In this document: in pieces, positions 10,391 to 62,671 of the stretch
Layout: every line of letters begins with the position of its first letter
How positions within the stretch are numbered: the first letter of the stretch is position 1
Origin: an uncultured Gemmatimonadales bacterium
Lineage (GTDB): Bacteria > Gemmatimonadota > Gemmatimonadetes > Longimicrobiales > Longimicrobiaceae
Assembly (NCBI GenBank): GCA_963716255.1
Contig: OY970303.1
Span: 672,001-736,000 of the forward strand
DNA: 64,000 nucleotides
Direction of reading: 5' to 3'
Notes under the pieces: generated by a model
The model's input: the letters and a program-made list of their open reading frames with translations, nothing else
The model's database searches: none
Told to the model about the DNA's origin: nothing
Made by a program: the position numbers and the translations under genes

Positions 10391-10594
10391 GGCGCCCCCA
10401 CGGGAAGATCCCGGTGGGGGCGCCGTTTTGCCGTTCGCAGTGTCGTCGTACCCATATGCTTCTGTACGGGGGGAGACTCGCCGGCTGTTTGGCGAGGCTC
10501 ACCCCGGCGAGGTGAGACAGCCGGGCAGTTTCGGCTGGCTCGCCGAGCCCGCGGAGGAGACCGGTGGCTGTATCGCCGGGCTCCGGAGCGGCCC
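10388..10594 (+). repeat. Structured repeat family A copy 1 (leading hairpin + three GAGAC/GGCTC hairpin modules)
   Basis: Hairpin 10388-10427; modules at 10473-10500, 10514-10541, 10557-10583; homologous to 41598-41800 and, reversed, to 34851-35051. Confidence 0.9.
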
Positions 10595-10614
10595 GCCTCC
10601 ACGCAAAGAAACCC

Positions 10615-12693
10615 TCAGCCCACGTGGAAAAGACGTGCTCGCTCCCCGTAGCGGGTCTCCAGCGCCTCCCGCAGCCGTGGATGCTTTTCCAGCTCCGGGT
10701 CCGCGTCCACGATGGCACGCGCCTCGCCGCGGGCACGGGTGAGCAGCGCCTCGTCCTTTTCCAGGTCGGCGAAGCGGAAGCTGGGGAGCCCCGACTGGCG
10801 GGCCCCGAACAGGTCGCCCTGGCCGCGGAGCCGCATGTCCGCCTCGGCGATGGCGAAGCCGTCCTCGGTGGAGGCGAAGATCCTCAGCCGCTCGGCCGCC
10901 TCGGCGCCGCCCGCCAGCAGGATGCAGAAGCTTTCCGCCACGCCGCGCCCCACCCGGCCGCGAAGCTGGTGGAGCTGCGACAGGCCGAAGCGCTCGGCGT
11001 GCTCGATCACCATCACCGACGCGTTGGGGACGTCGATCCCCACCTCGATCACGGTGGTGGCCACCAGCACGTCGATCTCGCCGGCGGCGAAGGCGCGCAT
11101 GGCGGCATCCTTTTCCTCGCTCGGCATCTGCCCGTGAAGCAGCCCCACGCGCAGGTCGGGGTAGACCTGGGCGCGAAGCAGCTCCCACTCCTCCGTGGCG
11201 GCCTTGAGGTCGGTCTTCTCGGACTCCTCCACCAGCGGGTAGACGACGTACGCCTGCCGCCCCGCCTCCACCTGCTCGCGGACGAACCCCAGCACCCGGG
11301 TGCGCGCGGACTCCGGCCGCAGCGCGGTGCGCACCGGCTGGCGCCCCGGCGGGCGCTCGTCCAGGATGGACACGTCCAGGTCGCCGTACAGCGTCAGCGC
11401 CAGCGAGCGCGGGATGGGCGTGGCGGACATCACCAGCACGTCGGGATTACTCCCCAGCTCGGAGAGCGCCATGCGCTGCTTCACCCCGAAGCGGTGCTGC
11501 TCGTCCACCACCACCAGCCCCAGCCGCGCGAACTGCACCCCCTCCTGGATCAGCGCGTGGGTCCCCACCGCGATCCCCGCCTCCCCCGAGGCGATGCGGT
11601 ACGCGACCTCGCGGTACTGCTTCGCCCCCAGCCGCCCGGTGAGCAGCGTCACCCCCACCGGCAGGTCGCCCAGCAGCTTCGTCAGCGTGCGCGCGTGCTG
11701 CTCGGCCAGGATCTCGGTGGGGGCCATGAGCGCCGCCTGGTAGCCGTTCTCCACCGCGCGCAGCATGGCGAACAGAGCGACCACCGTCTTGCCGGAGCCC
11801 ACGTCGCCCTGGAGCAGGCGGTTCATCCGCCGCGTCTGGCCCATGTCCTCGCCGATCTCCTTGAGCACCCGCACCTGCGCGCCGGTGAGCGCGAAGGGGA
11901 GCCGCCCGTAGAACGGGCGCACCAGCGTGTCCCGCCGCTCGAAGGCGATCCCCGGCCGCTCCACGGTGGCGCGGTGGCGCGACTGGGCGTGCAGGATCTG
12001 GAGGAAGAGAAGCTCCTCGTACGCGAGCCGGCGCCGCCCCTGCTCGGCCTCGGCGAGGGAGGCGGGACGGTGCAGCAGGTCCAGCGCGCGGGGGAGCGGC
12101 GGCAGGTCGTGCCGGGCCAGCATCTCCGCGTCCAGCATCTCCTCGTCCGCGGCGGAGCGAAGCAGCCCGTCCAGGTTCTCGGCGACCAGCGCGCGGATCT
12201 GGCGGTGCGAGAGGCCTTCGGTGGTGGGGTAGATGGGGAAGATGGCGCCCGACTCCTCGTCGGCCTCCTCGCCCTCCTTCGCCAGCTGCGTGAACTCCTT
12301 GGGCTGCAGCTGCCGGCCGTGGAAGAAGCGCACGGTGCCGGAGACCAGGAGCAGGTCGCCCTTCTGGATCACCCGGTCCAGGAAGGGCTGCCCCGGCCAG
12401 GAGCACTCGATGAGGCCGGACGAGTCGCGGATCACCGCCTGGAAGATGCGCAGCCCCTTGCGCGTGGGGATCACGCCCTTGGACACCACCCGCCCGATGA
12501 CGTTTGCCTCCATCCCCGCCTCCAGCACGCCGATGCGCTGGATGGTGGACGCGTCCTCGTAGCGGCGCGGGACGTGGAAGAGCACGTCGCGCGCGGTGAG
12601 GAGCCCCATCTTCTGCAGGAGCCCCGCGCGGCGCGGGCCGACGCCCTTGAGGAACTGGACGGGACGGTCGAGGTCGGAGTAGGCCGTGGTCAT
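10615..12693 (-). CDS. recG: ATP-dependent DNA helicase RecG
   Basis: Start re-called at MTTAYSDLD; LKGVGP, QGDVGSGKT, DEQHRFG, MSATPIPRS, QLRGRVGRG. Confidence 0.97.
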   Translation of the reverse strand: MTTAYSDLDRPVQFLKGVGPRRAGLLQKMGLLTARDVLFHVPRRYEDASTIQRIGVLEAGMEANVIGRVVSKGVIPTRKGLRIFQAVIRDSSGLIECSWPGQPFLDRVIQKGDLLLVSGTVRFFHGRQLQPKEFTQLAKEGEEADEESGAIFPIYPTTEGLSHRQIRALVAENLDGLLRSAADEEMLDAEMLARHDLPPLPRALDLLHRPASLAEAEQGRRRLAYEELLFLQILHAQSRHRATVERPGIAFERRDTLVRPFYGRLPFALTGAQVRVLKEIGEDMGQTRRMNRLLQGDVGSGKTVVALFAMLRAVENGYQAALMAPTEILAEQHARTLTKLLGDLPVGVTLLTGRLGAKQYREVAYRIASGEAGIAVGTHALIQEGVQFARLGLVVVDEQHRFGVKQRMALSELGSNPDVLVMSATPIPRSLALTLYGDLDVSILDERPPGRQPVRTALRPESARTRVLGFVREQVEAGRQAYVVYPLVEESEKTDLKAATEEWELLRAQVYPDLRVGLLHGQMPSEEKDAAMRAFAAGEIDVLVATTVIEVGIDVPNASVMVIEHAERFGLSQLHQLRGRVGRGVAESFCILLAGGAEAAERLRIFASTEDGFAIAEADMRLRGQGDLFGARQSGLPSFRFADLEKDEALLTRARGEARAIVDADPELEKHPRLREALETRYGERARLFHVG

Positions 12694-12815
12694 GCGCCGG
12701 GACGGCGGCGCACGGCGGCGATGCGGTCCGAAGAGGAGGATGTAGGTTTCGGCATCATGCCGCGTAGATTCCGCAGGTGCGTCGTACTTCCACGTCCAGA
12801 ACCGGAACGAGGCAG

Positions 12816-13427: not shown

Positions 13428-13497
13428 TCCGTCGGGCAGGTCGCGAGGCCAGGACGGCGTGGGAACTGTCTGCCACGCGCCTTGATGCGGAGGTCCC

Positions 13498-13788: not shown

Positions 13789-13849
13789 GCAAGCCTCGCT
13801 CGTGTGCGCCGATCCCTCCGAACACCTCCCGAAATGTAATCCGTTCCCG

Positions 13850-14874: not shown

Positions 14875-15005
14875 GGGCGTGCCCCCGGCTGCGCCGGGGT
14901 CGGGCTGCGGCTCCGTAGCAAACGATACTACCGTTTGCAACGGAGGCGAGCCCCGCCAAACTGCCGGCAGGTCTCGCCGCTTCGCGCTCGCATCCCTCAC
15001 GCGGG
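14875..15005 (-). repeat. Structured repeat family B copy 1 (reverse orientation, more diverged)
   Basis: Reverse complement of CCCGCGTGAGGGAT...AGCCCGACCCCGGC...GGGGGCACGCCC. Confidence 0.9.
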
Positions 15006-15041
15006 CATCGCGCTGGCGTCCGCAGCGAACAACTGCAAGCG

Positions 15042-17275: not shown

Positions 17276-18517
17276 TCAGTCCATCTGGCGACGGATGAAG
17301 GTGGGAATCTCCAGGTCGTTGGGCAGCGGCTTCTCCGCCTGGCGCGCGGGCCAGCGGATGGGCGCCGACGGCTGGGGCGGCTCGGCCTGCCGGGTCGCCT
17401 GCGGCTCGGGCGCGGGCTCCTGGCGCGGCGGGTACACCGTGGTGGTGTGGGTCCCCAGCGGCCTCACCTCGGGGCGGGGCTCCGGGCGCGTCGACGGCGA
17501 GGTGCGGAAGTTGGGGCGGATCACGTTGTCCGAGCGGTCCGCGAAGGGCGTCGCGGCGTCCTTCTCGAAGCCGGTGGCGATCACCGTGACCCGCACCTCC
17601 TCCTTCATGCTGCTGTCGTGCACCGCGCCGAAGATGATCTCGGCCTCGTCGCCCGCCGCGTCCTGGATGATGGAGGAGATGGTGGTGACCTCGTCGATCG
17701 CCAGGTCCATCCCGCCGGTGATGTTGATGAGCACCCCGGCCGCGCCGTGGATGGAGATGTTGTCCAGGAGCGGCGACGAGATCGCCTCCTGGGCCGCCTC
17801 CATGGAGCGGTTCTCGCCCCGGCCGAAGCCGGTCCCCATCAGCGCCGTGCCCCGGTTGGACATGATCGTCCGCACGTCGGCGAAGTCCACGTTGACCTCG
17901 CCGGTGACGCGGATCAGGTCCGAGATCCCCTGCGTGGCGTGCAGCAGCACCTCGTCCGCCTTCTTGAGGGCGTCCTTGAACGAGGTCCCCTTCCCCACCA
18001 CCGCCAGCAGCCTCTCGTTGGGCACCACGATCATGGTGTCCACCGCACGCTTCAGCTCGGCGAGCCCCTGCTCCGCCTGGCGCATCCGCTTCTTCCCCTC
18101 GAAAAGAAAGGGGCGGGTGACGATGGCGATGGTGAGCGCGCCCATCTCGCGCGCCATCTCGCCGATGAGCGGTGCGCCGCCCGTCCCCGTCCCGCCGCCC
18201 ATTCCGGCGGTGATGAAGACCAGGTCCGAGCCCTCCAGCGCCTTGCGCACCTCGTCGGCGCTCTCCTCCAGCGCCGCGCGCCCGATGTCCGGGCGCGCGC
18301 CGGCGCCCAGCCCGCGCGTCAGCTTCTTGCCGATCTGGATCTTGACGCCCGACTTGGAGTTCTTGAGCGCCTGCGAGTCGGTGTTCACCGAGATGAACTC
18401 GACGCCCTCCAGGTCCTCGTCGATCATCCGGTTCACCGCGTTCCCACCCCCGCCACCGACACCCACAACCTTCATGCGGGCGTTCTGGATGGCGGACTCC
18501 TCGTACTCAAAGATCAT
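17276..18517 (-). CDS. ftsZ: Cell division protein FtsZ
   Basis: [25 protein letters not shown]-terminal LEIPTFIRR. Confidence 0.99.
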
Positions 18518-18588
18518 CTTGCTCTTCCTCCGTCCCGGGGGAGGTACGAAACCACGAGAAAAACGTCGAGTGTCCGGCGCCGCTTCGC

Positions 18589-19833
18589 TTAAAAGAAGTC
18601 GGCCAGCCAGTCACGCATCCACCTGATCACGCCGCCCACGGCGGCTCCGCTCGCCGCGCCGCTCCCCGCGTGCTCGGGGACCATCCGCCGCGCGCCGTAC
18701 AGGGTGAGCCCCGTCGCGGTCGCGAACTTGGGGCGCCGGACCGAATCCGACAAGCCTCCCAGCTCCTCGCCGGGGACGCCGGTGCGCACCGGGGCCGCGA
18801 AGGTCCGCTCTGCCAGCTCCAGCATCCCGTGCAGCGACGCCCCCCCGCCGGTGAGCACGATCCCCGCGCCCAGCCGGTCCGCCAGCCCGCTGCGCTGCAC
18901 CTGGTCCTCCACGAGCCCCAGGATCTCGTCCATGCGCTGCTCGATGACGTGGGCCAGGAGCTCGCGCGCGATGTGGCGCGTCTGGCCCGCGGCGGCGCCG
19001 GGGACCTCGAAGGTCTCGTTGGGGTCCACCAGGTCCGCGCGGGCCACCCCCCAGCGCTCCTTGGCGCGCGACGCCTCGGCGTACGGCAGCGACAGGCCCT
19101 TGGCGATGTCGTTGGTCACCGTGGCGCCGCCCCAGGGCAGGGTGGCCAGGTGGCGGATCTTGCGCTCGTGGAAGATCACCACGTCGGTGGTCCCGCCGCC
19201 CAGCTCCACCATCGCCACCCCGATCTCCCGCTCGTCCTCGGAAAGCACGGCCATGGAGGAGGCGATGGGCTCCAGCACCAGCTCGGCCACCTGGTAGCCG
19301 GCGCGCGACACGGCCTTGCGGATGTTCTGCGCGGCGGAGGCGGCGCCGGTGACCAGGAACACCTCGGCCTCCAGCCGCGTCCCGGCCATCCCGGCGGGGT
19401 CGCGGATCCCGCCCTGCCCGTCCACCAGGTACTCCTGGGGGATGGCGTGCAGCAGCTCGCGGTCGGCGGGGATGGGGACGGCGCGCGCCACCTCGTGCAC
19501 CCGGTCGATGTCGCCGGCGGTGATCTCCTGCTTTCCCACCGCGACCACGCCGTGCGAGGCGCGCGCGTGGATGTGCTCCCCGGCGATGCCGGTGAAGAGC
19601 CGGTCCACGGTGACGCCGGCCATCAGCTCGGCTTCCTTGACCGCCTTGCGGACCGACTCGGTGGTGGCCTCGATGTCGGTGACCACCTCGCGGCGGATCC
19701 CCCCCGTCTTCGCCTGCCCCACGCCGAGCACCTTGACGGGGGACCGGTGGGGAGCGTCTCCCGCGACCTCCGCGATGACCACGGCGGTCTTGCTCGATCC
19801 GATGTCGAGGCCGGCAACCAGAGTAGAACGCAT
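18589..19833 (-). CDS. ftsA: Cell division protein FtsA
   Basis: [24 protein letters not shown]-terminal amphipathic helix [10 protein letters not shown]. Confidence 0.97.
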
Positions 19834-19842
19834 TCGCAGGGG

Positions 19843-20577
19843 CTACGCGCGGGGCGGATTCGGAAAACGGACGACCACCTGGTCCTGGAAGCGGAGGTCG
19901 ATGCGGACGGGGCCGGCCGGGGCGCGGCGCTCCACGTCGTCGAGCGCGGCGCGCAGCCGCCGCAGGCGGTCGGACCCGGCCCCGACGGGAAGGACGACCC
20001 GGGCGTCGGGGGCGGACACGGAAATCAGGAGCGCGTCCCGGCCGCTCCACTCCACCTCGGACACGCGGGCGAAGAGCCCCGGGTCCAGCTGCCCCAGGCG
20101 GCCCACCTCGGCGGCGAGGGAGCGGACCCGCGCGTCGTGGAGGCGGGTCTGCTTCCCCCCGCGCAGGAGCGGCAGGTCCACCGCGACGCGGGCGGGGTCC
20201 ACCGGGAGCACCTCGCCACGGGCGGTCACCGGGTGGAGCGCGCCGGCCTCCACCAGCCCCACGGGGCGCTTCTCGCGCACCTCGATGCGCAGGGTGGAGG
20301 GGAGCCGGCGCACCACCCGCGCGTCCTCCACGCCGGGGTGGCGGCGGAGCGCGGCGACCCACACCTCCGGGCGGCGCCACACGCTCTCGCCCCGGCGGAT
20401 CCCGGAGGCCGCGAGCACGTCGTGCGGGGCGACCATGCGGGCCCCGGCGACCTCCACGCGCTCCACCCTGAACCAGGGGGTCCGCTCCAGCAGGCGCGGC
20501 CCCCAGAGGGGCGCGGCGAGCACGGCCGGGAGGGCGGCGGCGAGGGCGAGGCGGCGGGCTCTGCGCATCCTCGTCAC
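19843..20577 (-). CDS. ftsQ: Cell division protein FtsQ
   Basis: C-terminal part of ORF 19843..21867; TM, POTRA (VERVEVAG..RRLPSTLRIEVRE), IDLRF; position between murC and ftsA; start 20577 or 20568. Confidence 0.9.
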   Translation of the reverse strand: MTRMRRARRLALAAALPAVLAAPLWGPRLLERTPWFRVERVEVAGARMVAPHDVLAASGIRRGESVWRRPEVWVAALRRHPGVEDARVVRRLPSTLRIEVREKRPVGLVEAGALHPVTARGEVLPVDPARVAVDLPLLRGGKQTRLHDARVRSLAAEVGRLGQLDPGLFARVSEVEWSGRDALLISVSAPDARVVLPVGAGSDRLRRLRAALDDVERRAPAGPVRIDLRFQDQVVVRFPNPPRA

Positions 20578-21989
20578 GCGGGCGAAGCCGCGCCGGCGAG
20601 GAGGTCGAGCATCTCCCGGGCGGCGGCGTCCAGGTTCCCGGCCCCGAGCGTCAGGCAGAGGTCCCCTTCGGCGAGCTCCGCGGCGACGGCGGCGCCGACG
20701 GACTCCCGCTCGGGGAGGTAGGCCACGTCGGCGCCGGCGGCGCGGGCCGACTCCACCACCATCTCCCCCGTCACCCCGGCGAGCGGCGCCTCGCGCGCCG
20801 CGTACACGTCGGTCACGAACACCCGGTCGGCGAGCGCCAGGGCGCGGCCGAACTCGGCGGCGAAGTCGCGCGTGCGGGAGTACAGGTGCGGCTGGAAGAC
20901 GGCCACGATGCGGCGGTCGGGGTGGGCGCTCCGGGCGGCGCGCAGGGTGGCGTCGATCTCGGTGGGGTGGTGCGCGTAGTCGTCCACGAAGAGCACTCCC
21001 CCGGCTTCGCCCACGCGCTCGAAGCGGCGGTCCACCCCGGCGTACGAGGCCAGCCCCTCCGCCACCGCGTCCCACTCCACCCCCAGGTGCCTCGCCACGG
21101 CAACGGCGGCCAGCGCGTTGCGGACGTTGTGGAGCCCGGGGACCCGGAGCCGTGCCTCGCCCAGGCGCACGCCGCGCTCGCGGACCGCGAACCTCATCTC
21201 CCCGGCATGGTCCCGGACGTCCTCCGCGCGCACCATGGAGCCGGCGCCCAGCCCGTAGGATACGACCTGCCTGCTGCTCCCGCCGATGCGGGCCAGGAGG
21301 CGCCCCGCGCCGTGGTCGTCGGCGCAGCCCGCGACCATGCCGCCGGACGGCACGGAGTCCACGAAGGCGAGGAACGCGTCCTCGATCGCGGCAAGCGAGC
21401 CGTAGATGTCCAGGTGGTCGGCCTCGAGGGTGGTCACGACGGCGATGCCGGGGCGGAGCGTCAGGAACGAGCGGTCGTATTCGTCGGCCTCGACCACGTA
21501 CAGGCGGTCGCCGCCGTGGCGGAGGTTGCCCCCCCACGCGGGGACGCGTCCGCCGACGACACCCGTGGGGTCGAGCCCGGCCGCCGCCAGCACGGTCGTG
21601 GCCAGGGTGGTGGTGGTGGTCTTTCCGTGGGTGCCGGCGATGCCGACGACCTGCGCCCGGTTGACCACCGCCCCGAGCGCCTCGGCGCGCTTCAGCACGG
21701 GGATGCCCAGCGCCCGCGCGGCGGCGATCTCGGGGTGGTCCTGCGGAACGGCGGCGGTCACCACCAGCGCTGCGCACCCCTCCAGGTGGGAGGGATCGTG
21801 CCCCGCGCACACCTCGGCGCCCGCCTCGCGGAGCGCCGCCGCGGCCGGGCCGGGGTGCAGGTCGCACCCCGTGACCCGCGCGCCGGCGCGGAGGAAGAGC
21901 TCGGCCAGGGGAGTCATCCCCGCGCCGCCGATCCCCATGAAATGGATCGGGCCGCGGTCCATGAACTCCGCCGGTTCGAAGGGGCTCAA
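20574..21989 (-). CDS. murC: UDP-N-acetylmuramate--L-alanine ligase
   Basis: HFMGIGGAGM, GTHGKTTT, EADEYD, DDYAHHPTEI; start may be ATG 21962. Confidence 0.97.
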   Translation of the reverse strand: MSPFEPAEFMDRGPIHFMGIGGAGMTPLAELFLRAGARVTGCDLHPGPAAAALREAGAEVCAGHDPSHLEGCAALVVTAAVPQDHPEIAAARALGIPVLKRAEALGAVVNRAQVVGIAGTHGKTTTTTLATTVLAAAGLDPTGVVGGRVPAWGGNLRHGGDRLYVVEADEYDRSFLTLRPGIAVVTTLEADHLDIYGSLAAIEDAFLAFVDSVPSGGMVAGCADDHGAGRLLARIGGSSRQVVSYGLGAGSMVRAEDVRDHAGEMRFAVRERGVRLGEARLRVPGLHNVRNALAAVAVARHLGVEWDAVAEGLASYAGVDRRFERVGEAGGVLFVDDYAHHPTEIDATLRAARSAHPDRRIVAVFQPHLYSRTRDFAAEFGRALALADRVFVTDVYAAREAPLAGVTGEMVVESARAAGADVAYLPERESVGAAVAAELAEGDLCLTLGAGNLDAAAREMLDLLAGAASPA

Positions 21990-22026
21990 TATAGTGGCCA
22001 GGTGCTGGGTGGAAAAGGGATTCGGG

Positions 22027-23181
22027 TCATGCGCCCCGCGCGTCCACGAGCCGCGCGAGGTGTTCGGCGATCCGCGCCGCCGCGTCGGGGCGCCCGCGGG
22101 TGCGCGCCCGGGCGGCGAGATCGCCGCGCCGCGCCGGGTCGCCGGCCAGCCCCACCAGCTCGCCCCACAGCCGCCCGCTCCCCAGCTCGGCCTCCTCCAC
22201 CATCACCGCCGCGCCGGCGTCGCGGAGCGCGACCGCGTTGTGGTGCTGGTGGTTGGCGGCGGCGGTGGGGAGCGGCACCAGGATGCTGGGCACCCCCCAG
22301 GCGCACAGCTCGGCGAGCGCCATCGCCCCCGCGCGCGACACCGCCACGTCCGCCGAGGCCAGCGCCCGCGGCATGTCCTGGATGTACGGGGTCGCATGCA
22401 CCCAATCGGCCCCGATCTCCGCCAGGCGCGCGGCGATCCCGTCGTAGTGCGCCGGGCCGGTGGCCCACAGCACCTCGAAGCCCTCGGGGCGCGGCGGGAG
22501 CCGCCCCTCGGCCACGCCGCGCAGGTCGGCCAGCAGCGCCTCGTTGACGGCGCGGGCGCCCTGGCTCCCCCCCACCACCAGCGCCACGGTCCCGCCGCCG
22601 AGCCCGAAAGCGGCGCGCGACTCCGCGCGGTCCAGGGTGGGATCGGGCGGGCGGATGGGGTTGCCGAACTCCAGCACCTCGGTGCGCGCGCCGGGCTTCA
22701 GGTACCGCCTGGCCTCCGGGAACGCAAGGTGGAGCTGGCGGACGCGGCCGGCGAGCAGGCGGGTGACCAGCCCGGGAAAGGAGTTCTGCTCCTGAAGCGC
22801 CGCGGGGACGCCGCGCAGCAGTCCGGCGAGCACGGCGGGGCCGCTGGCGTACCCGCCGGTCCCCACCACCAGGGCGGGACGGAAGTCGCGGTACACCCGC
22901 GACAGCCCCGCGAAGGAGCGGCTCATGGACGGGAGGAGCCGCCAGTTCTCCCATGGGCGCGAGCGGCGGATGGGCTCGAAGGGGAGCAGCAGGTGGGGCA
23001 CGCCCCGCTCCGGGAGGACCCGCGCCTCCACGCCGCGCTGCGCCCCCACGAAGAACACCTCGGTGCGCGGGTCGCGCTCGCGCATGGCCTCGGCGAGCGC
23101 CAGCGCCGGGTACAGGTGCCCCCCGGTGCCGCCGCCCGCGAACAGCACCCGCGGCGCGCCGCCCGCCCCGTGCGCGCTCAT
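22027..23181 (-). CDS. murG: Lipid II GlcNAc transferase MurG
   Basis: GGGTGGHLYP, GGYAS, EQNSFPG, GGSQGA, SRAGA, HQHHNA. Confidence 0.97.
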   Translation of the reverse strand: MSAHGAGGAPRVLFAGGGTGGHLYPALALAEAMRERDPRTEVFFVGAQRGVEARVLPERGVPHLLLPFEPIRRSRPWENWRLLPSMSRSFAGLSRVYRDFRPALVVGTGGYASGPAVLAGLLRGVPAALQEQNSFPGLVTRLLAGRVRQLHLAFPEARRYLKPGARTEVLEFGNPIRPPDPTLDRAESRAAFGLGGGTVALVVGGSQGARAVNEALLADLRGVAEGRLPPRPEGFEVLWATGPAHYDGIAARLAEIGADWVHATPYIQDMPRALASADVAVSRAGAMALAELCAWGVPSILVPLPTAAANHQHHNAVALRDAGAAVMVEEAELGSGRLWGELVGLAGDPARRGDLAARARTRGRPDAAARIAEHLARLVDARGA

Positions 23182-24389
23182 CGCGGCGCCGCGCGCGAGG
23201 CCCGCGCCACGCTGAGCAGGATCCCCACCGCGGCGAAGGCGGTGAGCAGCGCGCTGCGCCCGTACGACATGAAGGGGAGCGCCACGCCGGTGGTGGGGAG
23301 GAGCGCCAGCGCCACCCCCATGTTGAGGAAGGCGGAAACGGCCACCAGGTTGGTCATCCCCACCGCCAGCAGGTAGCCGAAGCGGTCCGGCGCCCGCGCC
23401 GCGATGCGGTACCCCACCACGGCGAAGCCGGCGAAGAGCGTGACGACGAAGGCGATCCCCAGCAGCCCCCACTCCTCCGCGATCATGGAGAAGATGAAGT
23501 CGTTGTGGGGCTCCGGGAGGAAGCCGAACTTCTGGCGGCTCTCGCCGAAGCCCACCCCGCCGATGCCGCCGGAGCCCACCGCGATCAGCGACTGGCGGAT
23601 CTGGTAGGTGACGCCCGCCGGGTCGGCCGTGGGGTCCAGGAAGGCGATGATCCGCTTCATCCGGTAGCTCGCGCCCTGGATCTGGCTCCACACCACCGGC
23701 ACCGCGACCAGCCCCAGCAGGATGAAGTGCCCGATGCGCGCCCCGCCCGCGAACAGCACCAGCGCCGACAGCAGCGCGATCAGCAGCGCCGCCGACAGGT
23801 TGGGCTGGAGGAAGACGAGCACCACGGCCAGGAGCCACACCACCAGGAACGGCGCGAGCCCCCGGCTCAGCGAGTGCAGGCGGTCCTGCTTCTTCACCGC
23901 CATGGCGGCCGTCCACACGATCAGCGCGATCTTGGCGAACTCGGAGGGCTGGAACTGGACGCCCAGGTCGATCCAGCGGCGCGCGCCGTTGACCCGCGGG
24001 GCGATCGCCTCCGTCCCCGGCAGGATCACCAGCAGGAGGAGGAAGAGCACGGTCGCCAGGATGGGCCAGGCGGCGATGCGGTAGTGCCGGTAGTCGATGC
24101 GCGCGAGAATCGCCGCGCCGGCCGCGCCCATCGCCGCGCCCATCACCTGCCGCACGGCGTAGAAGTGCCCCGGCAGCCCGTCCGACTGGGCCAGGAAGGC
24201 GCTGGCGCTGTAAAGCTCGATCACCCCGAAGGACAGGGCGAGCAGGGTGAGCAGCACCAGCGCGCCCGGCTCCCACCCTTCGGCGCGCTCCCGCCCGGCC
24301 GCCATGGCGTGGCCCCGCGGCGAGATACGCTCCGTCCCCCGGAAGATCCCCGGTACCCGGATCCCCGCCTTATGCGCGATGGTCTGCAT
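23178..24389 (-). CDS. ftsW: SEDS peptidoglycan polymerase FtsW
   Basis: GARRWI, QPSEFAK, PEPHNDFIF, PFMSYG; multiple TMs. Confidence 0.96.
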   Translation of the reverse strand: MQTIAHKAGIRVPGIFRGTERISPRGHAMAAGRERAEGWEPGALVLLTLLALSFGVIELYSASAFLAQSDGLPGHFYAVRQVMGAAMGAAGAAILARIDYRHYRIAAWPILATVLFLLLLVILPGTEAIAPRVNGARRWIDLGVQFQPSEFAKIALIVWTAAMAVKKQDRLHSLSRGLAPFLVVWLLAVVLVFLQPNLSAALLIALLSALVLFAGGARIGHFILLGLVAVPVVWSQIQGASYRMKRIIAFLDPTADPAGVTYQIRQSLIAVGSGGIGGVGFGESRQKFGFLPEPHNDFIFSMIAEEWGLLGIAFVVTLFAGFAVVGYRIAARAPDRFGYLLAVGMTNLVAVSAFLNMGVALALLPTTGVALPFMSYGRSALLTAFAAVGILLSVARASRAAPR

Positions 24390-25758
24390 CGTTCTCCCGA
24401 GTGACGAGCTCCACGAACCGCTTTCCCCTTTCCTCGTAGCTCCGGAACATGTCGAAGCTGGCGCACGCCGGCGACAGCAGGACCGCGTCCCCCGGCCGGG
24501 CGATCTCCCGCGCCCGGGCCACCACCGCCTCGAAGGGACCGTCCACCCGCTCCAGCGGCACCCGCCCGCGCAGGTCAGCCTCCACCAGCGGCGCCGCCTC
24601 GCCGTAGGCGATCACGGCGCGGACGCCCTCCCCCAGCTCCGGGAGCAGCTCGGTGTACGGCTCGCCCTTGTGCCTGCCGCCCAGCAGCAGGACCGTCGGG
24701 CGGGTCATGCCGCGGACGGCGACGCGCGTGGAGGCGATGTTGGTGGCCTTGCTGTCGTTGACCCACAGCACCCCGTCGACCTCGCCCACCGGCTCCAGCC
24801 GGTGCGGCGGCGCCCGGAAGCCGCGCAGCCCCCGCCGCACCGACTCGGCATCCGCCCCCGCCAGCCGCGCCGCGACCGCCGCGGCCAGGGCGTTGGCGAC
24901 GTTGTGCGGCCCCAGGATGCGCAGCTCGCCCGCGTCCACCAGCCGCTCCTCGGCCCCGTCTTCCAGCCGCAGCACGAGCGCGCCGTCCACGGCCAGGAAG
25001 CCGCCACGCTCGCCGGGTTCCTGCGCGGACGCGACCCGGAAGTAGAAGCGGGTCCCCGGCGCGTCGCCGATCAGCTCCCTGGCGCGCTCGTCCTCGGCGT
25101 TCAGCACCCAGCGGCTCGCAGCGGTCGCGTTGCGGAAGAGGCGCGCCTTGTCGGCGTAGTACGCCTCCACGTCCGGGTACCAGTCCAGGTGGTCGGGCGC
25201 GAGGTTGGTGAGCACCCCGATTGCCGGCGCGAAGTCGCGCGTCATCGCCAGCTGGAAGGAGGACACCTCCACCACCGCGACCTGCGGTGGCACGTCCCTC
25301 AGCGCCAGCTCCGAGAGCGCCGTGCCGATGTTGCCCCCGGCCGGGGCGTCGATCCCGGCCTCCGCCAGCAGCTGCGAGACGAGCGCGGTGACCGTGGTCT
25401 TGCCGTTGGTCCCCGTGATCCCCACCACCGGCGCGTCCAGCTGCCCGAAGGCCAGCTCCACCTCCGCGATCACCGGTACGCCGGCGATGGCCGGGTCCCG
25501 CAACACGGCGGCCGTGGGCGGGATCCCCGGGCTCAGCACGATCACGTCGCACTTCGCCAGCCGGGCCGTGTCGTGTCCTCCCGTCTCCGCCTCGCCGCCC
25601 AGCGCCCGCACCCGCTCCGCCGCCTCGCGCGCCGCCGGGCCGTCGCCCGCGTCGCTGGCGTACACCGTCGCCCCGCGCGCCAGCGCCAGCCGCGCCGCCG
25701 CCAGCCCGCTGCGGGCCAGCCCCAGCACCCCCACGTCCCGGCCGGCGAGGGAGCGCAT
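24370..25758 (-). CDS. murD: UDP-MurNAc-L-Ala--D-Glu ligase
   Basis: GLARSG, GTNGKTT, EVSSFQL, NDSKATN, SPACASFDMF. Confidence 0.97.
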   Translation of the reverse strand: MRSLAGRDVGVLGLARSGLAAARLALARGATVYASDAGDGPAAREAAERVRALGGEAETGGHDTARLAKCDVIVLSPGIPPTAAVLRDPAIAGVPVIAEVELAFGQLDAPVVGITGTNGKTTVTALVSQLLAEAGIDAPAGGNIGTALSELALRDVPPQVAVVEVSSFQLAMTRDFAPAIGVLTNLAPDHLDWYPDVEAYYADKARLFRNATAASRWVLNAEDERARELIGDAPGTRFYFRVASAQEPGERGGFLAVDGALVLRLEDGAEERLVDAGELRILGPHNVANALAAAVAARLAGADAESVRRGLRGFRAPPHRLEPVGEVDGVLWVNDSKATNIASTRVAVRGMTRPTVLLLGGRHKGEPYTELLPELGEGVRAVIAYGEAAPLVEADLRGRVPLERVDGPFEAVVARAREIARPGDAVLLSPACASFDMFRSYEERGKRFVELVTRENDADHRA

Positions 25759-26870
25759 CAGCGGATCTTGAGCGTGGCGAAGGCGACCAGCGCGAACATC
25801 ACCCCCAGCAGCCAGAAGCGGATGATGACCCGGTTCTCGTGCCAGCCGATCTGCTCGAAGTGGTGGTGGAGCGGGGCCATGCGGAAGATGCGCCGGCCCA
25901 CGCCGGTGCGCCGCTTGGTCCACTTGTAGTATAGGGTCTGCGCGGCCACGGAGGCGGCCTCCAGCACGAACATTCCCCCCACGATGGCCAGCAGGAACTC
26001 CGCCTTGAGGAGCACCGCGATCGCCCCCAGCACCCCCCCGATGGCGAGCGACCCGGTGTCGCCCATGAACACCTCGGCGGGGTGGGCGTTGAACCACAGG
26101 AAGCCCATGCACCCCCCGGCCAGCGCCACGCAGAACACCGCCAGCTCCCCCGAGCCGGGGAGGTAGAACAGGTTCAGGTAGTCGGAAGAGTCCACGCGGC
26201 CCAGCAGGTACGCGAAGATCCCCATGGTCACCGCCGCGATGGCCGACAGTCCGGCCGCCAGCCCGTCCAGTCCGTCGGTGAGGTTCACCGCGTTGGAAAA
26301 GGCGGTGATGACGAAGACCACGAAGAGCACGTACGCCCAGGGCGCGAAGGTCACGTGCCACGACTTGAAGAAGGGGATCTGCGTCCAGGTGGGCGGCACG
26401 TCGCCGAAGAGCCCGGGGGTGTAGATCAGGAAGAGCCCCACCAGCACCCCCAGAGACACCTGTCCCACGATCTTGTAGCGCCCGACCAGCCCCTCCGTCT
26501 TCTTCCGCACCACCTTGAGGTAGTCGTCCATGAACCCCAGCCCGCCCAGCCACAGGATCACCACCACCGCCACCCAGGTGTACGGGTTGTCCAGCTCCGC
26601 CCAGAGCAGGGTGGGGATCACCGTCGCCATCACGATCAGCACCCCGCCCATGGTGGGCGTCCCCGACTTGCCCAGGTGCGTCTGCGGGCCCTCGGTGCGC
26701 ACCACCTGCCCCACCTTGAGGATCCGCAGCCGCCGGATGATCCCGGGCCCGAAGTAGAAGGCCACCAGGAACGCCGTCACCACTGCCCCCGCCGCACGGA
26801 ACGTCGTGAAGCGGAAGAGGTTGAAGATGATGTGGTATTCCGAGAGCGGGACGAGCAGGTGGTAGAGCAC
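25758..26870 (-). CDS. mraY: Phospho-MurNAc-pentapeptide transferase
   Basis: TPTMGG, DDYLK, NLTDGLDGL, FMGDTGS, APLHHHFE. Confidence 0.98.
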   Translation of the reverse strand: MLYHLLVPLSEYHIIFNLFRFTTFRAAGAVVTAFLVAFYFGPGIIRRLRILKVGQVVRTEGPQTHLGKSGTPTMGGVLIVMATVIPTLLWAELDNPYTWVAVVVILWLGGLGFMDDYLKVVRKKTEGLVGRYKIVGQVSLGVLVGLFLIYTPGLFGDVPPTWTQIPFFKSWHVTFAPWAYVLFVVFVITAFSNAVNLTDGLDGLAAGLSAIAAVTMGIFAYLLGRVDSSDYLNLFYLPGSGELAVFCVALAGGCMGFLWFNAHPAEVFMGDTGSLAIGGVLGAIAVLLKAEFLLAIVGGMFVLEAASVAAQTLYYKWTKRRTGVGRRIFRMAPLHHHFEQIGWHENRVIIRFWLLGVMFALVAFATLKIR

Positions 26871-26897
26871 CGTGGTCCGTGGCTGAAAGTCGAAAAA

Positions 26898-26926
26898 GGT
26901 TACAGGGGACAGGTTACAGCCTGCAA
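26898..26926 (+). repeat. Short repeat family D copy (degenerate)
   Basis: GGTTACA GGGGACA GGTTACA GCCTGCAA between mraY and murF. Confidence 0.6.
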
Positions 26927-26979
26927 AAACTTGTGCGTCCGTAAGCCGTTCGCAGTTGCCGGCTATTCCCTGTGACGCT

Positions 26980-28455
26980 TCACGCTTCGCGTGAACCGGT
27001 GAACCCTGTTCCCTGTTCCCTGCCGTTCCCGAAGTCCCGCTCCAGCAGCGGGAGCCAGCGCTCCAGCGACTCCCCGCGCGACGCCTTCAGCAGGATGGTG
27101 TCGCCGCCTCCCAGCCGCGCGGACACCGCGGAGTACGCCTCCACCGGGTCGGCGACGGCCACCAGGCGCTCGCCCAGCGCGGAGGCGTGCGGCGCGAAAG
27201 CCACGGCGAACTCGCCGGTGGCGACCACCAGGTCGATCCCCCGCCCCACCCTGCCGGCGATCTGCTCGGCGGCGCGGCGGTGCAGCATCGGCGCGTGGTC
27301 GCCCATCTCGCGCATGGTGCCGACCACCGCCACCTTGGACCCCTCGGCCGGGAGGCCGGCGAGGAGGTCCACCGCGGCGGCCAGGCTGGGCGGGTTGGAG
27401 TTGTAGCAGTCCGCGAGCACCTGGAGGCTCCCCACGGTGTGCCACTCGTTGCGCAGCTTGGGGCGCGGCACCTTGCCCAGGGCGCGGGCGGCGGACTCCC
27501 GGGAGATCCCCATCTCGCGGGCCAGCCCCAGCGCGAACAGGGCGTTGCGGACGTTGTGGCGCCCCGGGAGAGGGAGGTGGATGGGCACGCCCTCCCAGCT
27601 CCAGCGGGTGGTGCCGTCCGGCTGGATCTCGATGGCGCCCTCGCCGCCGTCCGGGTGCAGGTCCGCGCCCTCGGACAGGCCGACCACGCGCACCCGGTAG
27701 CCGCCCAGCTCGGCGCGGGTGCGCTGCGGGAGCGCGGGCGGGTCCTCGGCCACCAGGGCGATCCCGCCCAGCCGCAGCCCCTTGACCATGTTCAGCTCCT
27801 CCTCCAGCACACCCTCCAGGCTCCCCAGCCCCTCCAGGTGCTCCTCGCCGATGGAGGTGACGATGGCGAAGTCGGGCTCGGCGATGCGGCCCAGGATGGC
27901 GATCTCGCCCGGCTCGTTGGTCCCCATCTCCACCACCAGCACCTCGGCCTCGTCGGGGGCGGCGAGGAGGGTGAGGGGGACGCCCACCTGGTTGTTGAGG
28001 TTGCCCTCGGTGGCGTGGACGCGGAAGCGGGCGGCGAGCACGGCGCGGACCAGGTCCTTGGTGGTCGTCTTGCCGTTGCTCCCCCCGATTCCCACCACCT
28101 TGCCGCGGTGGAGGCGGCGGCGGTGGCGGGCCAGGCGGCCGAGGGCGCGCAGGGTGTCGTCCACCTCGAACAGGCGCATCCCCTCGGGGGCGTCGGCGGG
28201 GCGGCGGGACACCACGGCGCCGATCGCGCCCCGGTCCGCGGCCTCGCGCAGGAAGGCGTGGCCGTCGAAGCGCTCGCCCACCAGCGCGACGAAGAGCGAG
28301 CCCGGGACGACCTTGCGGGTGTCGGTGGAAACCCCGGCGAACTCGGTGTCCTCGTCGCCCTTGCGGTCGGCCGCCCCGCGGCTGATCCACGCACGGAGCA
28401 TCTCGTCCTCCAGCGCCTGCCGCACCTCCCCCGCCGTCCACCGGAAACCGCTCAA
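26980..28455 (-). CDS. murF: UDP-MurNAc-tripeptide--D-Ala-D-Ala ligase
   Basis: TTG start overlapping murE stop; STDTR, GSNGKTTTK, EMGTNEPGEI, DCYNSNP, LKASRG. Confidence 0.95.
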   Translation of the reverse strand: MSGFRWTAGEVRQALEDEMLRAWISRGAADRKGDEDTEFAGVSTDTRKVVPGSLFVALVGERFDGHAFLREAADRGAIGAVVSRRPADAPEGMRLFEVDDTLRALGRLARHRRRLHRGKVVGIGGSNGKTTTKDLVRAVLAARFRVHATEGNLNNQVGVPLTLLAAPDEAEVLVVEMGTNEPGEIAILGRIAEPDFAIVTSIGEEHLEGLGSLEGVLEEELNMVKGLRLGGIALVAEDPPALPQRTRAELGGYRVRVVGLSEGADLHPDGGEGAIEIQPDGTTRWSWEGVPIHLPLPGRHNVRNALFALGLAREMGISRESAARALGKVPRPKLRNEWHTVGSLQVLADCYNSNPPSLAAAVDLLAGLPAEGSKVAVVGTMREMGDHAPMLHRRAAEQIAGRVGRGIDLVVATGEFAVAFAPHASALGERLVAVADPVEAYSAVSARLGGGDTILLKASRGESLERWLPLLERDFGNGREQGTGFTGSREA

Positions 28456-33266: not shown

Positions 33267-33273
33267 CGAACGT

Positions 33274-34850: not shown

Positions 34851-35051
34851 GGGCCGCTCCGGAGCCGGACGATACTGCCGTCCGTCTCCTGCGCGGGTCG
34901 CGGAGCCCCGGGAAACTGCCCCCGGGTCTCCGCTCCGGCTCCGTGAGCCTCGCGCAAACAGCCGCGCGAGTCTCCCTCCGCAACGGATCATGTGGGTACT
35001 GCGGAACTGCGAACGGCGCCCCCGCCCGGATCTCCCGGTGGGGGCGCCGTT
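34851..35051 (-). repeat. Structured repeat family A copy 2 (reverse orientation)
   Basis: Reverse complement has leading hairpin near-identical to 10388-10427, then three GAGAC-stem-GGCWGTWT-stem-GGCTC modules and CGGAGCGGCCC end. Confidence 0.9.
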
Positions 35052-35375: not shown

Positions 35376-35506
35376 CCCGCGTGAGGGATTCCGGCCCGAA
35401 GGGGCGAGACCCGGCGGCTGTTTGCCGGGGCTCGACTCCGTTGAGCAGCGTTGTTTGCTGCTCTACGGAGCCGAAGCCCGACCCCGGCGCAGCCGGGGGC
35501 ACGCCC
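35376..35506 (+). repeat. Structured repeat family B copy 2
   Basis: CCCGCGTGAGGGATT...GGGGGCACGCCC. Confidence 0.93.
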
Positions 35507-39882: not shown

Positions 39883-40014
39883 CCCGCGTGAGGGATTCCG
39901 GCCCGAAGGGGCGAGACCGCGCGGCTGTTTGCGCGGGCTCGACTCCGTTACGCAGCGTTGTTTGCTGCGTTACGGAGCCGAAGCCCGACCCCGGCGCCAG
40001 CCGGGGGCACGCCC
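39883..40014 (+). repeat. Structured repeat family B copy 3
   Basis: Same conserved blocks as 35376-35506. Confidence 0.93.
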
Positions 40015-40994: not shown

Positions 40995-41135
40995 GGGCGT
41001 GCCCCCGGCTGTCGCCGGGGTCGGGCTTCGGCTCCGTAAGCCCGCAAACAACGCGGGCTAACGGAGTCGAGCCCCGCGAAACTGCCCGCGGCGATACTCG
41101 CGCCCCTTCAAACGGGCCGAAATCCCTCACGCGGG
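40995..41135 (-). repeat. Structured repeat family B copy 4 (reverse orientation, small insertions)
   Basis: GGGCGTGCCCCCGGC...CCCTCACGCGGG. Confidence 0.9.
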
Positions 41136-41597: not shown

Positions 41598-41800
41598 AAC
41601 GGCGGAACGGCGCACCCATCAGCGCCGTTCCGCCGTTCGCCGTTTCCGTAGTACCCCCATCATCCTGTTCGGAGGGAGACTCGCCGGCAGTATGGCGAGG
41701 CTCCCTCCGGCGCAGGGAGACACCGGGGCAGTTTCCGGTGGCTCCCTGCGCCCGCGGAGGAGACCGGCGGGGCTGTTTCCGCCGGGCTCCGTAGCGGCCC
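41598..41800 (+). repeat. Structured repeat family A copy 3
   Basis: 16-bp hairpin 41598-41637; modules at 41676-41703, 41717-41744, 41760-41789. Confidence 0.9.
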
Positions 41801-44619: not shown

Positions 44620-44656
44620 GAACGGCAGGGGACAGGGGACAGCCTGCAACGGCGAC
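44620..44656 (+). repeat. Short repeat family D copy
   Basis: GAACGGCA GGGGACA GGGGACA GCCTGCAACGGCGAC. Confidence 0.8.
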
Positions 44657-44747
44657 CCCCTCCCCCGGCCCCTCCCCGCAAGGGGGAGGGGAGAACGACA
44701 CGACGCACATGGGGGTCAGGAAGCCCTCCCCCAGAATTGGGGGAGGG
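44657..44747. repeat. Two REP-like C/G-tract palindromes
   Basis: CCCCTCCCC-GCAAG-GGGGAGGGG (44669-44691) and CCCTCCCCCA-GAAT-TGGGGGAGGG (44724-44747). Confidence 0.65.
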
Positions 44748-44798: not shown

Positions 44799-44929
44799 CC
44801 CGCGTGAGGGATTTTGGCCCGAAGGGGCGAGACCCGGCGCAGTCTGCCGGGGCTCGACTCCGTAAGCCCGCGTCGTTTGCGGGCTTACGGAGCCGAAGCC
44901 CGACCCCGGCGCCAGCCGGGGGCACGCCC
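44799..44929 (+). repeat. Structured repeat family B copy 5
   Basis: Same conserved blocks; 5' extension GCGGACGC shared with copies 1, 3 and 4. Confidence 0.93.
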
Positions 44930-54495: not shown

Positions 54496-54533
54496 GAACG
54501 GCGAGGGAACAGGGAACAGCCTGCAACGGCAAC
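54496..54533 (+). repeat. Short repeat family D copy
   Basis: GAACGGCGA GGGAACA GGGAACA GCCTGCAACGGCAAC. Confidence 0.8.
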
Positions 54534-58392: not shown

Positions 58393-58406
58393 CCCTCGCG
58401 CGGAGT

Positions 58407-59918: not shown

Positions 59919-59926
59919 GGGGACGG

Positions 59927-60975: not shown

Positions 60976-60976
60976 C

Positions 60977-62428
60977 CTACCAGCGCCAGCGGTAGGTGTA
61001 CGTCACCACGACCTCGCCGCCCTGCGGCACGGTCAGCGGGAACTCCACGGTGGTGGCGTCCTTCTTTTCCGAGCGGTGGCTGCTGCGCAGGATCTCCCAG
61101 TCGCCCTGCAGGTGCTCCACCACGGAGACCTGGGCAGGCCCTTCCTTGTGGTTGCGGATGGTGACCTGCACCGTCTGCTCCTGTACCCGCTCGGAGACCT
61201 GCCGGGTGTCCATGACCCTGCGCTCGCCCACCACGTCGAAGGCGTCGCCGATGTACAGGCGCACCGTCTCGCCCTGCGGGGTGTGGTCCACCAGGTCCTC
61301 GCCGATGAACTGCAGGTTGCCGGTGCGGTCGCCCTTGTAGACGCGCACCTTGCCCCTGGGCAGCGGCATCCCCATGCGGTTCTCGCGCGTGTTCCGCACT
61401 TCCAGCACGATCCCCAGCTTGTCGCCCGTGGTGCTGGTGCCGTCGCCGGGGCGCCGCGCGCGCGAGGCCCACCAGGGCGCGGCCACGTCGAAGACCAGCC
61501 GCCGCGTCACCCCCACGTCGGTGGCGGCAAGCAGGCTCATCTGCTTGGTCTCGTTGTTGGCGACGGTGGTGGTGCCGTCCAGCGTGTACAGGTGGTACTC
61601 GAAGAACGCTTCCTGCGCGAAGGCGGGCTGCGGCGGGGCCGCCATGGGAACGCGCGACCGCGCCTGGACCTCCGCCGCGGCGTAGCCCTCGGCGATGCGG
61701 CGCACGTCGCCGGCCATGAGCTGGAGCCGCGCGTCGCGGTAGGCGGCGCCGCTGCGGTTGTCGAGCGTCACCCAGCCGGTGAGGTCCACGCGGCTCTCGT
61801 CGTCGCGCACCACGGCCACGTAGTCGGCCTTCCAGGAGATGCCGTTGGCGATGTAGGACACCTGGGTGTCGTGCTCGCCGGCCTGCGTCGCGTCCAGCGT
61901 CCACAGCAGCGAGGGGCGCGACACCAGCCCGGCCGCTACGTCCCCCACCTCCACCGTGCCGTACGGGTTGAGCACGAAGCGCCCGTCCGCGGTCCTCACC
62001 ACCACGCCGCCGGACGAGGGCGGGCTGAGCAGCGTCCCCTCCACGACGACGCGGCGGACGCCCCGGTCGTCCAGCGACACGTAGCGCACCGTCTTCCCCA
62101 CGGACTTTTCCAGCAGCGCGTTGGGGCTGACCAGGTCGAACTGGTAGTTCTGTTCGCGGACGGCGACTGCGCCGGGCGCGGTGAGCGAGCGGATGGCGAT
62201 GGAGGTGGGGTCGATCTGCTGCGCGACGCCCTCGTAGCGCACCAGGTTGCGCCCGGCCCGCAGCGGGATGAGCCGCTGCTCGCGCACCACGGCGAAGTTG
62301 CCGTTGTACACGGTGAGCGACACGCCGCGCGTGGCCTCCGGCCCGGAAACGACCGGCTCCTGTGCGGCGGCGGCGAGCGGCGCGGCAGAGAGGAGCAGCG
62401 CCGCGAGCGTACGAAGGGATGCTTTCAT
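60977..62428 (-). CDS. Secreted DUF4139-type protein
   Basis: Signal peptide; LTVYNGNFAVVRE, SWKADY, EYHLY, GMPLP.G.VRVY. Confidence 0.75.
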   Translation of the reverse strand: MKASLRTLAALLLSAAPLAAAAQEPVVSGPEATRGVSLTVYNGNFAVVREQRLIPLRAGRNLVRYEGVAQQIDPTSIAIRSLTAPGAVAVREQNYQFDLVSPNALLEKSVGKTVRYVSLDDRGVRRVVVEGTLLSPPSSGGVVVRTADGRFVLNPYGTVEVGDVAAGLVSRPSLLWTLDATQAGEHDTQVSYIANGISWKADYVAVVRDDESRVDLTGWVTLDNRSGAAYRDARLQLMAGDVRRIAEGYAAAEVQARSRVPMAAPPQPAFAQEAFFEYHLYTLDGTTTVANNETKQMSLLAATDVGVTRRLVFDVAAPWWASRARRPGDGTSTTGDKLGIVLEVRNTRENRMGMPLPRGKVRVYKGDRTGNLQFIGEDLVDHTPQGETVRLYIGDAFDVVGERRVMDTRQVSERVQEQTVQVTIRNHKEGPAQVSVVEHLQGDWEILRSSHRSEKKDATTVEFPLTVPQGGEVVVTYTYRWRW

Positions 62429-62539
62429 GGGCGAGGACGGGAAAAGGGCGATCCGGATCTCGCCGCCGGCAGCGGAAGCTGCGGTGCGGCGCCTGTGCGA
62501 TGGAAGACGAGCGAAGAGCCCGATCCTGCACAGGTGCCG

Positions 62540-62671
62540 CCCGCGTGAGGGATTTCGGCCCGGAGGGGCGAGACCCGCGGGCAGTTTCGCGGGGCTCGAC
62601 TCCGTTGCAGACGGTCGTTTCGTCTGCTACGGAGCCGAAGCCCGACCCCGGCGCCCGCCGGGGGCACGCCC
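62540..62671 (+). repeat. Structured repeat family B copy 6
   Basis: Same conserved blocks, located just after the recJ stop. Confidence 0.93.

Follow-up and report, generated by a model that had tools for sequence, protein, structure and literature searches.

The stretch analysed here (64,000 nt, hereafter the window; positions 672001-736000 of contig C1 of the source genome G000, an uncultured Gemmatimonadales soil bacterium of the family Longimicrobiaceae) contains a small hairpin module that recurs in two different repeat families, A and B, and it raises the question of what this module belongs to and what could read it. The original prediction, made from the sequence alone, had counted 15 modules, three in each family A copy and one in each family B copy, and regarded them as a protein-binding site on RNA or single-stranded DNA (ssDNA), comparable to the repetitive extragenic palindrome (REP) hairpins read by RAYT transposases. 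With the strict pattern GAGAC-N4-7-GGCWGTWT-N4-7-GGCTC, 13 matches could be identified between 10473 and 62597 (mean 0.00, largest 0, in 100 dinucleotide shuffles), and two degenerate modules bring the total to the predicted 15, distributed as described over three family A elements (~155 nt) and six family B elements (~129 nt). All of the paired stems listed before were found again, two additional stems (10557 and 14948) carry a G·T pair, and, as had been stated, no enzyme partner is encoded in the window. What is new is the plasmid link: on sequence evidence, family B has a homologue in conjugative plasmids, a cloverleaf that recurs in their leading region.

Searches with family B against plasmids (blastn) retrieved 160 records, 125 of which were conjugative; with the plasmid form as query, at least 1,486 records were found, including 1,336 conjugative ones. 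The matches extend over an entire cloverleaf whose parts follow one another as in family B, with TGC-GCA-GCA in place of the long second hairpin. A hidden Markov model built from G000 copies alone scored plasmid copies at E 2.5e-7 to 1e-3. A covariance model trained only on Longimicrobiaceae-type chromosomal copies of family B and of a small family D (eight copies in G000), whose E-values should be taken as rough, matched R388 (E 9e-7 and 3e-6), F (7e-5 and 0.014), R46 (1.2e-4) and pN-Cit. R388 has two copies, both D-like, and F also has two. Loops vary freely in the plasmid copies, and the GYNGT loop of the chromosomal families is absent from most of those examined; pMBUI4 and pAd12 carry the GGCTGTTT loop. 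Thus, the shared determinant is the A·G helix, the triloop and the junction. Family A gave three weak plasmid matches (blastn); in phages, family B had one weak 32-nt match and the plasmid form had no match. As DNA, the plasmid sequence belongs to the CUP (conserved upstream) repeats of the IncN plasmids R46/pKM101, reportedly described by Delver and Belogurov in 1997, so the sequence as such is not new. In a literature search for which subscription papers were largely outside reach, neither these repeats in Gemmatimonadota nor the cloverleaf as a structure of the transferred strand (T-strand) were found described, and the same holds for the fold, the strand rule given below, the spread beyond IncN and the chromosomal amplification.

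The T-strand starts at a nic-like motif. In R388, R46, pN-Cit and pMTY2826 this motif precedes the leading region on the + strand, which also carries all 14 copies. In F, the two copies are found on the strand that serves as template for the leading genes, a strand treated as the T-strand in the available text of a previous study (PMC9849209). All 16 copies in the five plasmids with an assignable T-strand are therefore on it, and copies after stbC keep this orientation though transcription there runs the opposite way. In eight further plasmids, which were oriented by the match itself rather than by an independently assigned T-strand, nearby leading-type or replication genes run antisense to the copy, except for one copy after stbC in pPC9. 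One weak covariance-model match (E 0.73) is on the other strand. With regard to position, the IncN copies lie at the promoter-distal end of long CUP-type repeats (away from the gene), between establishment operons, and the F cloverleaf lies ~100 nt beyond the published sequence of the single-strand initiation site (ssi) ssiD, beyond the Frpo promoter, both F copies being upstream of Frpo-driven genes. In IncN, the stretch 5' of the cloverleaf matches the phiX174 F-G intergenic region, which we take to hold the primosome assembly site (pas). The best match agrees in 22 of 24 columns and scores 36, against 20 for the opposite strand, and none of 300 shuffles reached it. The part of the pas literature available to us describes that site without coordinates (PMC5778457). 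In R46 (L402, at 26268, 23763 and 22051) each cloverleaf has such a 5' stretch, possibly an unannotated primosome site in the CUP repeats.

Family B is composed, in order, of a closing stem (GCGTG/CACGC), the A·G helix, a CCC-GNA-GGG triloop hairpin, the module, a second hairpin with the loop GYNGTWT and a 3' hairpin. The A·G pair persists in ~1,280 of the 1,342 closing helices in G000 (~95%), 81 of which have the GAAAC/GGTTC form, whilst 52 helices have it corrected to A-T; across two phyla (a 13-row alignment of family B, D and plasmid forms) the A·G pair is invariant. The triloop is G-N-A in 754 of 773 family B copies and its stem covaries from CCC/GGG to CGC/GCG; in family A, 205 of 209 ends have the last module on top of a GNA/GNA 3x3 loop. 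It should be noted that one parse of family A was limited to 63 of 214 copies. In DNA, both C-GNA-G triloops and sheared G·A pairs form stable structures; on the opposite strand they would read TNC and C·T, so that the GAGAC strand is picked as the folding one. These features argue for folding as DNA rather than RNA, and the cloverleaf is predicted to fold in ssDNA. The expectation of a folded single strand with a conserved mismatch helix was thus upheld, and so was the novelty of the hairpin with respect to Rfam, in which the module matches no family (best E 2.1, none above a family's gathering threshold). Other parts of the original prediction have to be revised. The loop is conserved in the window but at genome scale is wider than stated (GYNGTWY); the module stem has 4-7 bp in G000, so the distance from loop to mismatch is not fixed; and a fixed loop is not the shared determinant, as the plasmid homologues and a 166-nt form of family B with a different, long loop in the relative G021 keep the helix and junction with other loops. 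In G021 (L409-L437), family B copies are also followed by ACGCACT-type octamer arrays (on the other strand) instead of a GYNGT tail and have a long variable insert in module 1.

The scan of the whole genome that had been suggested revealed 880 strict modules in G000, 742 of them with a perfect Watson-Crick stem; an arm-swapped control pattern had no match. A relaxed census gave 1,342 modules in ~1,080 intergenic elements (families A, B and the eight copies of D), and profile searches gave 226 matches for family A (178 full) and 855 for family B (810 full). Only one of 1,031 near-full A/B copies was inside a called gene, according to our own gene caller, which misses some genes (including a DUF559 gene discussed below). 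Between co-directional genes, family B had no sense-strand preference (228 vs 253, p 0.27). All eight congeners examined carried the module, each with between 32 and 906 strict copies, as did 3 of 16 other genera of the family; none of 16 genomes of two sister families had it. A looser pattern matched 7 of 300 genomes of the phylum, five by chance as judged by inspection and two real (G203 and G113). Named records with the same module are labelled as Longimicrobiaceae, Gemmatimonadota or Gemmatimonadales. An RNA-model search of 120 class-level genomes found G021 only; with 28 candidates scored per genome and strict filters, this search does not show absence elsewhere. In viral contigs, all 30 pattern matches lacked a perfect Watson-Crick stem and are chance matches. 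In G203 the module tips long rod hairpins. Such rods (~150-200 nt; L107, L109, L354-L365 of G203 and L379-L390) occur in a Gemmatimonadales-type lineage and in soil metagenomes, with paired outer arms that vary freely, stacked GNA/GNA loops and the module at the tip; no recurring neighbour gene was seen by eye in 12 fetched G203 stretches.

The co-varying stems had been taken as a sign of selection on the fold. Comparison between families agrees with this: in the 13-row alignment, 13 of 26 pairs change on both sides and 93% of cells pair, a level reached by none of 500 shuffles (slid controls, 27-54%), which is not a probability because the rows are related and the structure was written by hand from family B. 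Within one genome, however, the covariation has a different basis. The 880 strict modules of G000 draw on only 86 stem types; in family B the alleles of stem 1 and stem 2 are almost independent (mutual information 0.104 vs 0.064±0.011 bits shuffled, of ~3 bits), and the two arms of hairpin 2 vary together (2.79 of 3.09 bits). At orthologous sites in the congener G001 (gene ends 92-97% identical), 3 of 10 comparable first stems and 6 of 9 comparable second stems (9 of 19 for both hairpins) differ as whole paired alleles, and the sites at 41.7 and 44.8 kb of the window show the same whole-hairpin differences in several congeners. Stem covariation within the genome is thus likely to be largely the exchange of whole hairpins between copies, and gene-conversion-type recombination may be its cause. 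Since a limited allele pool is exchanged in this way, the stems are not independent compensatory events, and counting them as such overstates selection. Apparent covariation in other multicopy repeats can arise in the same manner, which calls for caution in covariation tests.

What could the cloverleaf do? The reading that we favour, with a rough probability of 0.45, is that it is a predicted ssDNA signal read by a host priming or replication-restart protein, which was amplified into a REP/BIME-like family (BIME, bacterial interspersed mosaic element). The module would be the conserved arm of a cloverleaf that folds in ssDNA and is read by the host protein; on plasmids, its place of action would be the incoming strand, next to establishment promoters, where it would prime or time the conversion from single- to double-stranded DNA; in Longimicrobiaceae, the signal would have been amplified to ~1,080 recombining intergenic copies per genome. 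The direction from plasmid to chromosome is presumed here, and so is a host-encoded reader, because no gene is common to all carrier plasmids inspected and no dedicated transposase was found. G000 encodes PriA and DnaG.

Several observations weigh against this reading. By nearest-neighbour DNA energies, the GAGAC strand is the more stable one in 9 of 11 plasmid copies, with a margin of only 0.2-5 kcal/mol. Among the rare stem mismatches in G000, G·T is not clearly commoner than A·C (16 and 15, respectively, in stem 1; 29 and 23 in hairpin 2). Family B has no overall lagging-template bias (432 of 817, p 0.11), and family A is depleted on the lagging template (73 of 217). The chromosome-trained covariance model has no match in ColE1 or phiX174, which hold classical primosome sites, and four short cloverleaf pieces are absent from the published Frpo/ssi table. 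Of the 10 intergenic matches to the phiX174-like motif in G000, none adjoins an element within the context printed, and the F stretch examined does not contain the motif; the link to PriA is therefore by neighbourhood only. No conjugative element was found in G000, and hence no intermediate between plasmid and chromosome was seen; at E 1e-3 the genome has no VirB4, coupling protein, ArdA/B/C, DUF932 or relaxase domain. A TrwC match was rejected as a relaxase since it covers only the helicase-type stretch, and a match to a plasmid toprim protein is the host dnaG. Finally, a host priming signal alone does not explain the spread to 1,000 sites. A wider reading, which we consider doubtful, is the following. 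F, IncN, IncW, PromA-like and Pseudomonas plasmids would set a widespread and so far undescribed ssDNA cloverleaf beside each establishment promoter to load the host priming/restart machine and so time the strand switch; in Longimicrobiaceae it would have escaped as a transposase-free selfish repeat that carries its own priming site and reshuffles its hairpins, and this REP/BIME-like family would thus originate from a plasmid replication signal.

Less probable than the favoured reading is that these are non-autonomous mobile repeats or recombination sites of a dedicated ssDNA cut-and-join enzyme (an HUH enzyme, a tyrosine recombinase or a Vsr-like nuclease) which cuts at GYNGT and on plasmids would shuffle blocks of leading-region genes as integron attC sites do. 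GYNGT, present in the loops and at the ends of the elements, is a candidate cut/join site: it follows the 3' end of family B in 573 of 836 copies (background 5.9%), family B begins directly after GYNGTY in 136 of 803 copies, and GTWY is found at the 5' end of family A in 189 of 202. Recognition of E. coli REP needs a mismatch bulge, and CUP-mediated rearrangements have been reported, as far as the accessible parts of these sources go (PMC8266576, PMC5371602). When orthologous spacers were compared (20 fetched stretches each of G001 and G008, alignments viewed in part), element content differed at 5 of 78 in G001 and 6 of 69 in G008, some with gain or loss of accessory genes. Several of these spacers retain a 3' remnant and may therefore be deletions; one, near 6.333 Mb in G000, is a clean empty/filled pair with GCCGTC at the empty site and an element that ends in GCTGTT. 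A second test of syntenic family B sites found 22 of 24 shared and two not (49 examined). Also in favour of cutting and joining, 52 of 53 element pairs less than 300 nt apart are back-to-back, as in REPINs (paired REP elements), mostly around C-type hairpins. Miniature inverted-repeat transposable elements have terminal inverted repeats and a target-site duplication; in the A/B elements the only counterparts are a closing stem of 5 bp, a GYNGT(Y) that flanks a minority of copies on either side, and one clean empty site. The enzyme is the main difficulty, in addition to the missing GYNGT loop of most plasmid copies: no gene whose flanks are framed by A/B elements was found in G000 among HUH/Y1 transposases, reverse transcriptases and nucleases, so that the comparison to REP and RAYT held for the behaviour of the repeats and not for a partner. 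Y1_Tnp (RAYT type) had no match in G000 and was found in one of eight congeners; among 26 Y1 loci, only L043 had a family A copy nearby, on one side. Y2_Tnp (IS91-type) also had no match, a weak negative since the control was silent, and neither had the IS110 transposase. The single reverse transcriptase lies by a small membrane-protein gene in an AT-rich island without modules. None of four tyrosine recombinase genes could be placed as an integron integrase by inspection, and the two GIY-YIG matches are in long frames, which at L040 (the one read) was not framed by repeats. DUF559, with one strong match in G000, was rejected as a partner because all loci printed (1 + 10 + 9) were framed by C-type hairpins, not by A/B elements. 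As this gene had been missed by the gene caller, 441 uncalled open reading frames of G000 were rescreened; 20 were near elements and, apart from the DUF559 gene, none was partner-like by eye.

A role in RNA, for example as a leader, as a 3' untranslated region that stabilises, processes or terminates transcripts, or as a small RNA for which the chromosomal copies are kept, seems unlikely. In its favour, family B yields strong RNA folds whichever strand is read (z -5.1 and -5.05). Elements are over-represented behind gene ends: family B is found in 287 convergent and 48 divergent spacers, against a background of 445 and 605. Family A is more often antisense than sense (87 vs 47, p 7e-4), and element bins are more covered than gene bins in four metatranscriptome assemblies. 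However, plasmid copies, including those after stbC, follow the T-strand and not transcription, the F copy is beyond the Frpo promoter, family B lacks a sense bias and Rfam has no match. The excess in contig depth (tens-fold) is below copy number, and contigs show neither strand nor level; these four runs hold 5-9% of the words, as contigs only, and allow no conclusion on expression. The possibility that the repeats are functionless palindromic debris, kept uniform by gene conversion and by template-switch correction of quasi-palindromes, appears very improbable. It would fit the limited allele pool, the hairpin swapping and the 3' remnants after deletions, but the A·G pair resists correction in ~95% of 1,342 helices and does not vary among the 13 aligned rows, and both the compensatory changes between family B, D and plasmid forms and the strict strand bias on plasmids speak against it; for the plasmid form it is largely refuted.

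The cloverleaf family is to be described as a REP/BIME-like repeat together with a CUP/ssi-associated plasmid element, and it differs from each of the closest known systems in some respect. Its plasmid homologue is part of long CUP repeats, at their promoter-distal end; the cloverleaf is found by itself as well (after stbC), and further in plasmids of the IncW, F, PromA-like and Pseudomonas kinds and on a chromosome (G000) without an ArdA, ArdB or ArdC match, and the chromosomal copies avoid divergent spacers, where promoters would be expected. In the available parts of previous reports, the CUP repeat is a promoter with an ArdK site on double-stranded DNA, with no mention of a folded T-strand cloverleaf (PMC5371602, PMC6289460, PMC6294495), and three consensus sequences within CUP repeats are mentioned (PMC5371602). 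Frpo and ssi are presented there as single-stranded promoters and initiation signals of the leading-region T-strand that act when folded (PMC11541004, PMC9849209, PMC7690428, PMC12672017). The plasmid cloverleaf is on the same strand and region (16 of 16 copies), but it lies outside ssiD, has no evident -35/-10 duplex and is branched rather than one long stem. With the phiX174-type pas (PMC5778457, in part) it would have in common a folded ssDNA read by a host protein, as proposed for the cloverleaf, and in IncN a phiX174-like neighbour, which was found neither beside the copies in G000 nor in the F stretch examined; phiX174 and ColE1 have no match to the cloverleaf itself. REP, BIME and REPIN sequences, as far as described in the accessible text (PMC8266576, PMC3733652), resemble families A and B in being hundreds of intergenic palindromes with mosaics and back-to-back pairs, a conserved mismatch, use as insertion sequence (IS) targets and depletion from divergent spacers. 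By contrast, A/B elements are 125-160 nt long and branched, with conserved loops and a plasmid homologue; their consensus lacks a GTAG/GTGG or CGTC foot by a 20-40 nt hairpin, and no RAYT gene was found in G000. Integron attC sites are strand-specific folded ssDNA with fixed irregularities, variable stems and GT(T) at junctions within an RYYYAAC...GTTRRRY frame. Families A and B also have a strand-specific predicted fold, fixed irregularities, variable stems and GT(T) at junctions; they lack that frame and form no cassette arrays, and a reading as attC turned inside out was abandoned, since the majority of hairpin-2 alleles disagree with GTTRRRY. Sites of the attC type are named in the part of PMC8266576 available.

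Within the window, the reference family B copy, which was the query that matched plasmids, is at 39886..40014 (+; module 39913-39940) and consists of P1 (GCGTG/CACGC), P2 with the A·G pair, a CCC-GAA-GGG triloop, the module, the second hairpin and the 3' hairpin. The other family B cloverleaves are at 14875..15002 (-; CGC-GAA-GCG variant; module 14948-14975; 106.1 bits), 35379..35506 (+; module 35406-35433; 122.8 bits; DNA fold z -6.7), 40995..41132 (-; 96.5 bits), whose degenerate module has its loop at 41079-41086 and an altered 5' closing arm, 44802..44929 (+), whose module (44829-44855, +) has the 7-nt loop GCAGTCT, and 62543..62671 (+; module 62570-62597; 114.9 bits). The copy at 44802..44929 is present in G001, G006 and G008 with other second-hairpin alleles and absent from G002, G004 and G005. 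Family A elements are at 10438..10594 (+; modules 10473-10500, 10514-10541 and 10557-10583; nhmmer 129.6 bits; GYNGTWY-type motifs at the 5' end), 34851..35009 (-; modules 34945-34974, 34903-34930 and 34862-34888; 130.1 bits; DNA fold z -4.8 on its own strand vs -3.0 on the opposite one) and 41642..41800 (+; modules 41676-41703, 41717-41744 and 41760-41789), a site that is occupied in four congeners with differing hairpin alleles. A C-type (BoxC-like) hairpin of a separate repeat family (44724..44747) is on the 5' side of the 44.8 kb family B copy, and a GC hairpin bounded by AAC...GTT (10388..10427) is on the 5' side of the 10.4 kb family A copy, with a second copy at 35012-35051. Runs of GGG(G/A)ACA heptads at 44628-44641 and 54505-54518, followed by GCCTGCAACGGC, form a further repeat family at gene ends. 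The central part (17276-33705) corresponds to the dcw cell-division cluster, with genes from mraZ to ftsZ recognised by eye in the translations, and has no A or B element.

Elsewhere in G000, an all-against-all blastp of gene families near elements (~7.83 of 8.42 Mb) was topped by IS transposases that insert into the repeats. Among the unrelated insertion sequences that use family B as a target, IS481-like insertions at the module AGAC of family B were seen at eight sites with a 4-bp duplication (for example, 639715-641044 and 4403789-4405118), four being full copies and four derivatives of ~300 nt. A 1.5-kb IS with GTCATACCCCAAAT ends is inserted in module 1 of family B at 1756511, 2524974, 3672855 and 4228520 and at these four sites duplicates ~10 bp covering the module loop. 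An IS5/IS1182-like transposase family inserts at TA, mostly within C-type hairpins (10 sites, for example, 8098398). Inverted C-type hairpins also frame the small DUF559 gene (G000:C1:125233-125544, L038; also L068-L082 and L366-L374), which is at one conserved site in most congeners, and the same hairpins fill the centres of A/B mosaics. The island with the reverse transcriptase (L007, G000:C1:1014551-1018153; AT-rich, 520 aa, with the small membrane-protein gene upstream) presumably holds a defence-type pair.

A role of Frpo in priming in vivo remains to be shown, according to the available part of a previous study (PMC7690428). For priming of the incoming plasmid strand in vivo, the conserved T-strand structure in F, R388 and R46 provides a defined sequence that is accessible to deletion and assay in standard laboratory strains. 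To our knowledge, most bacterial intergenic repeat families without a RAYT gene have no known origin. The sequence link from a chromosomal repeat of 1,000 copies in Gemmatimonadota to an element of the plasmid leading region in Proteobacteria offers one origin for such repeats.

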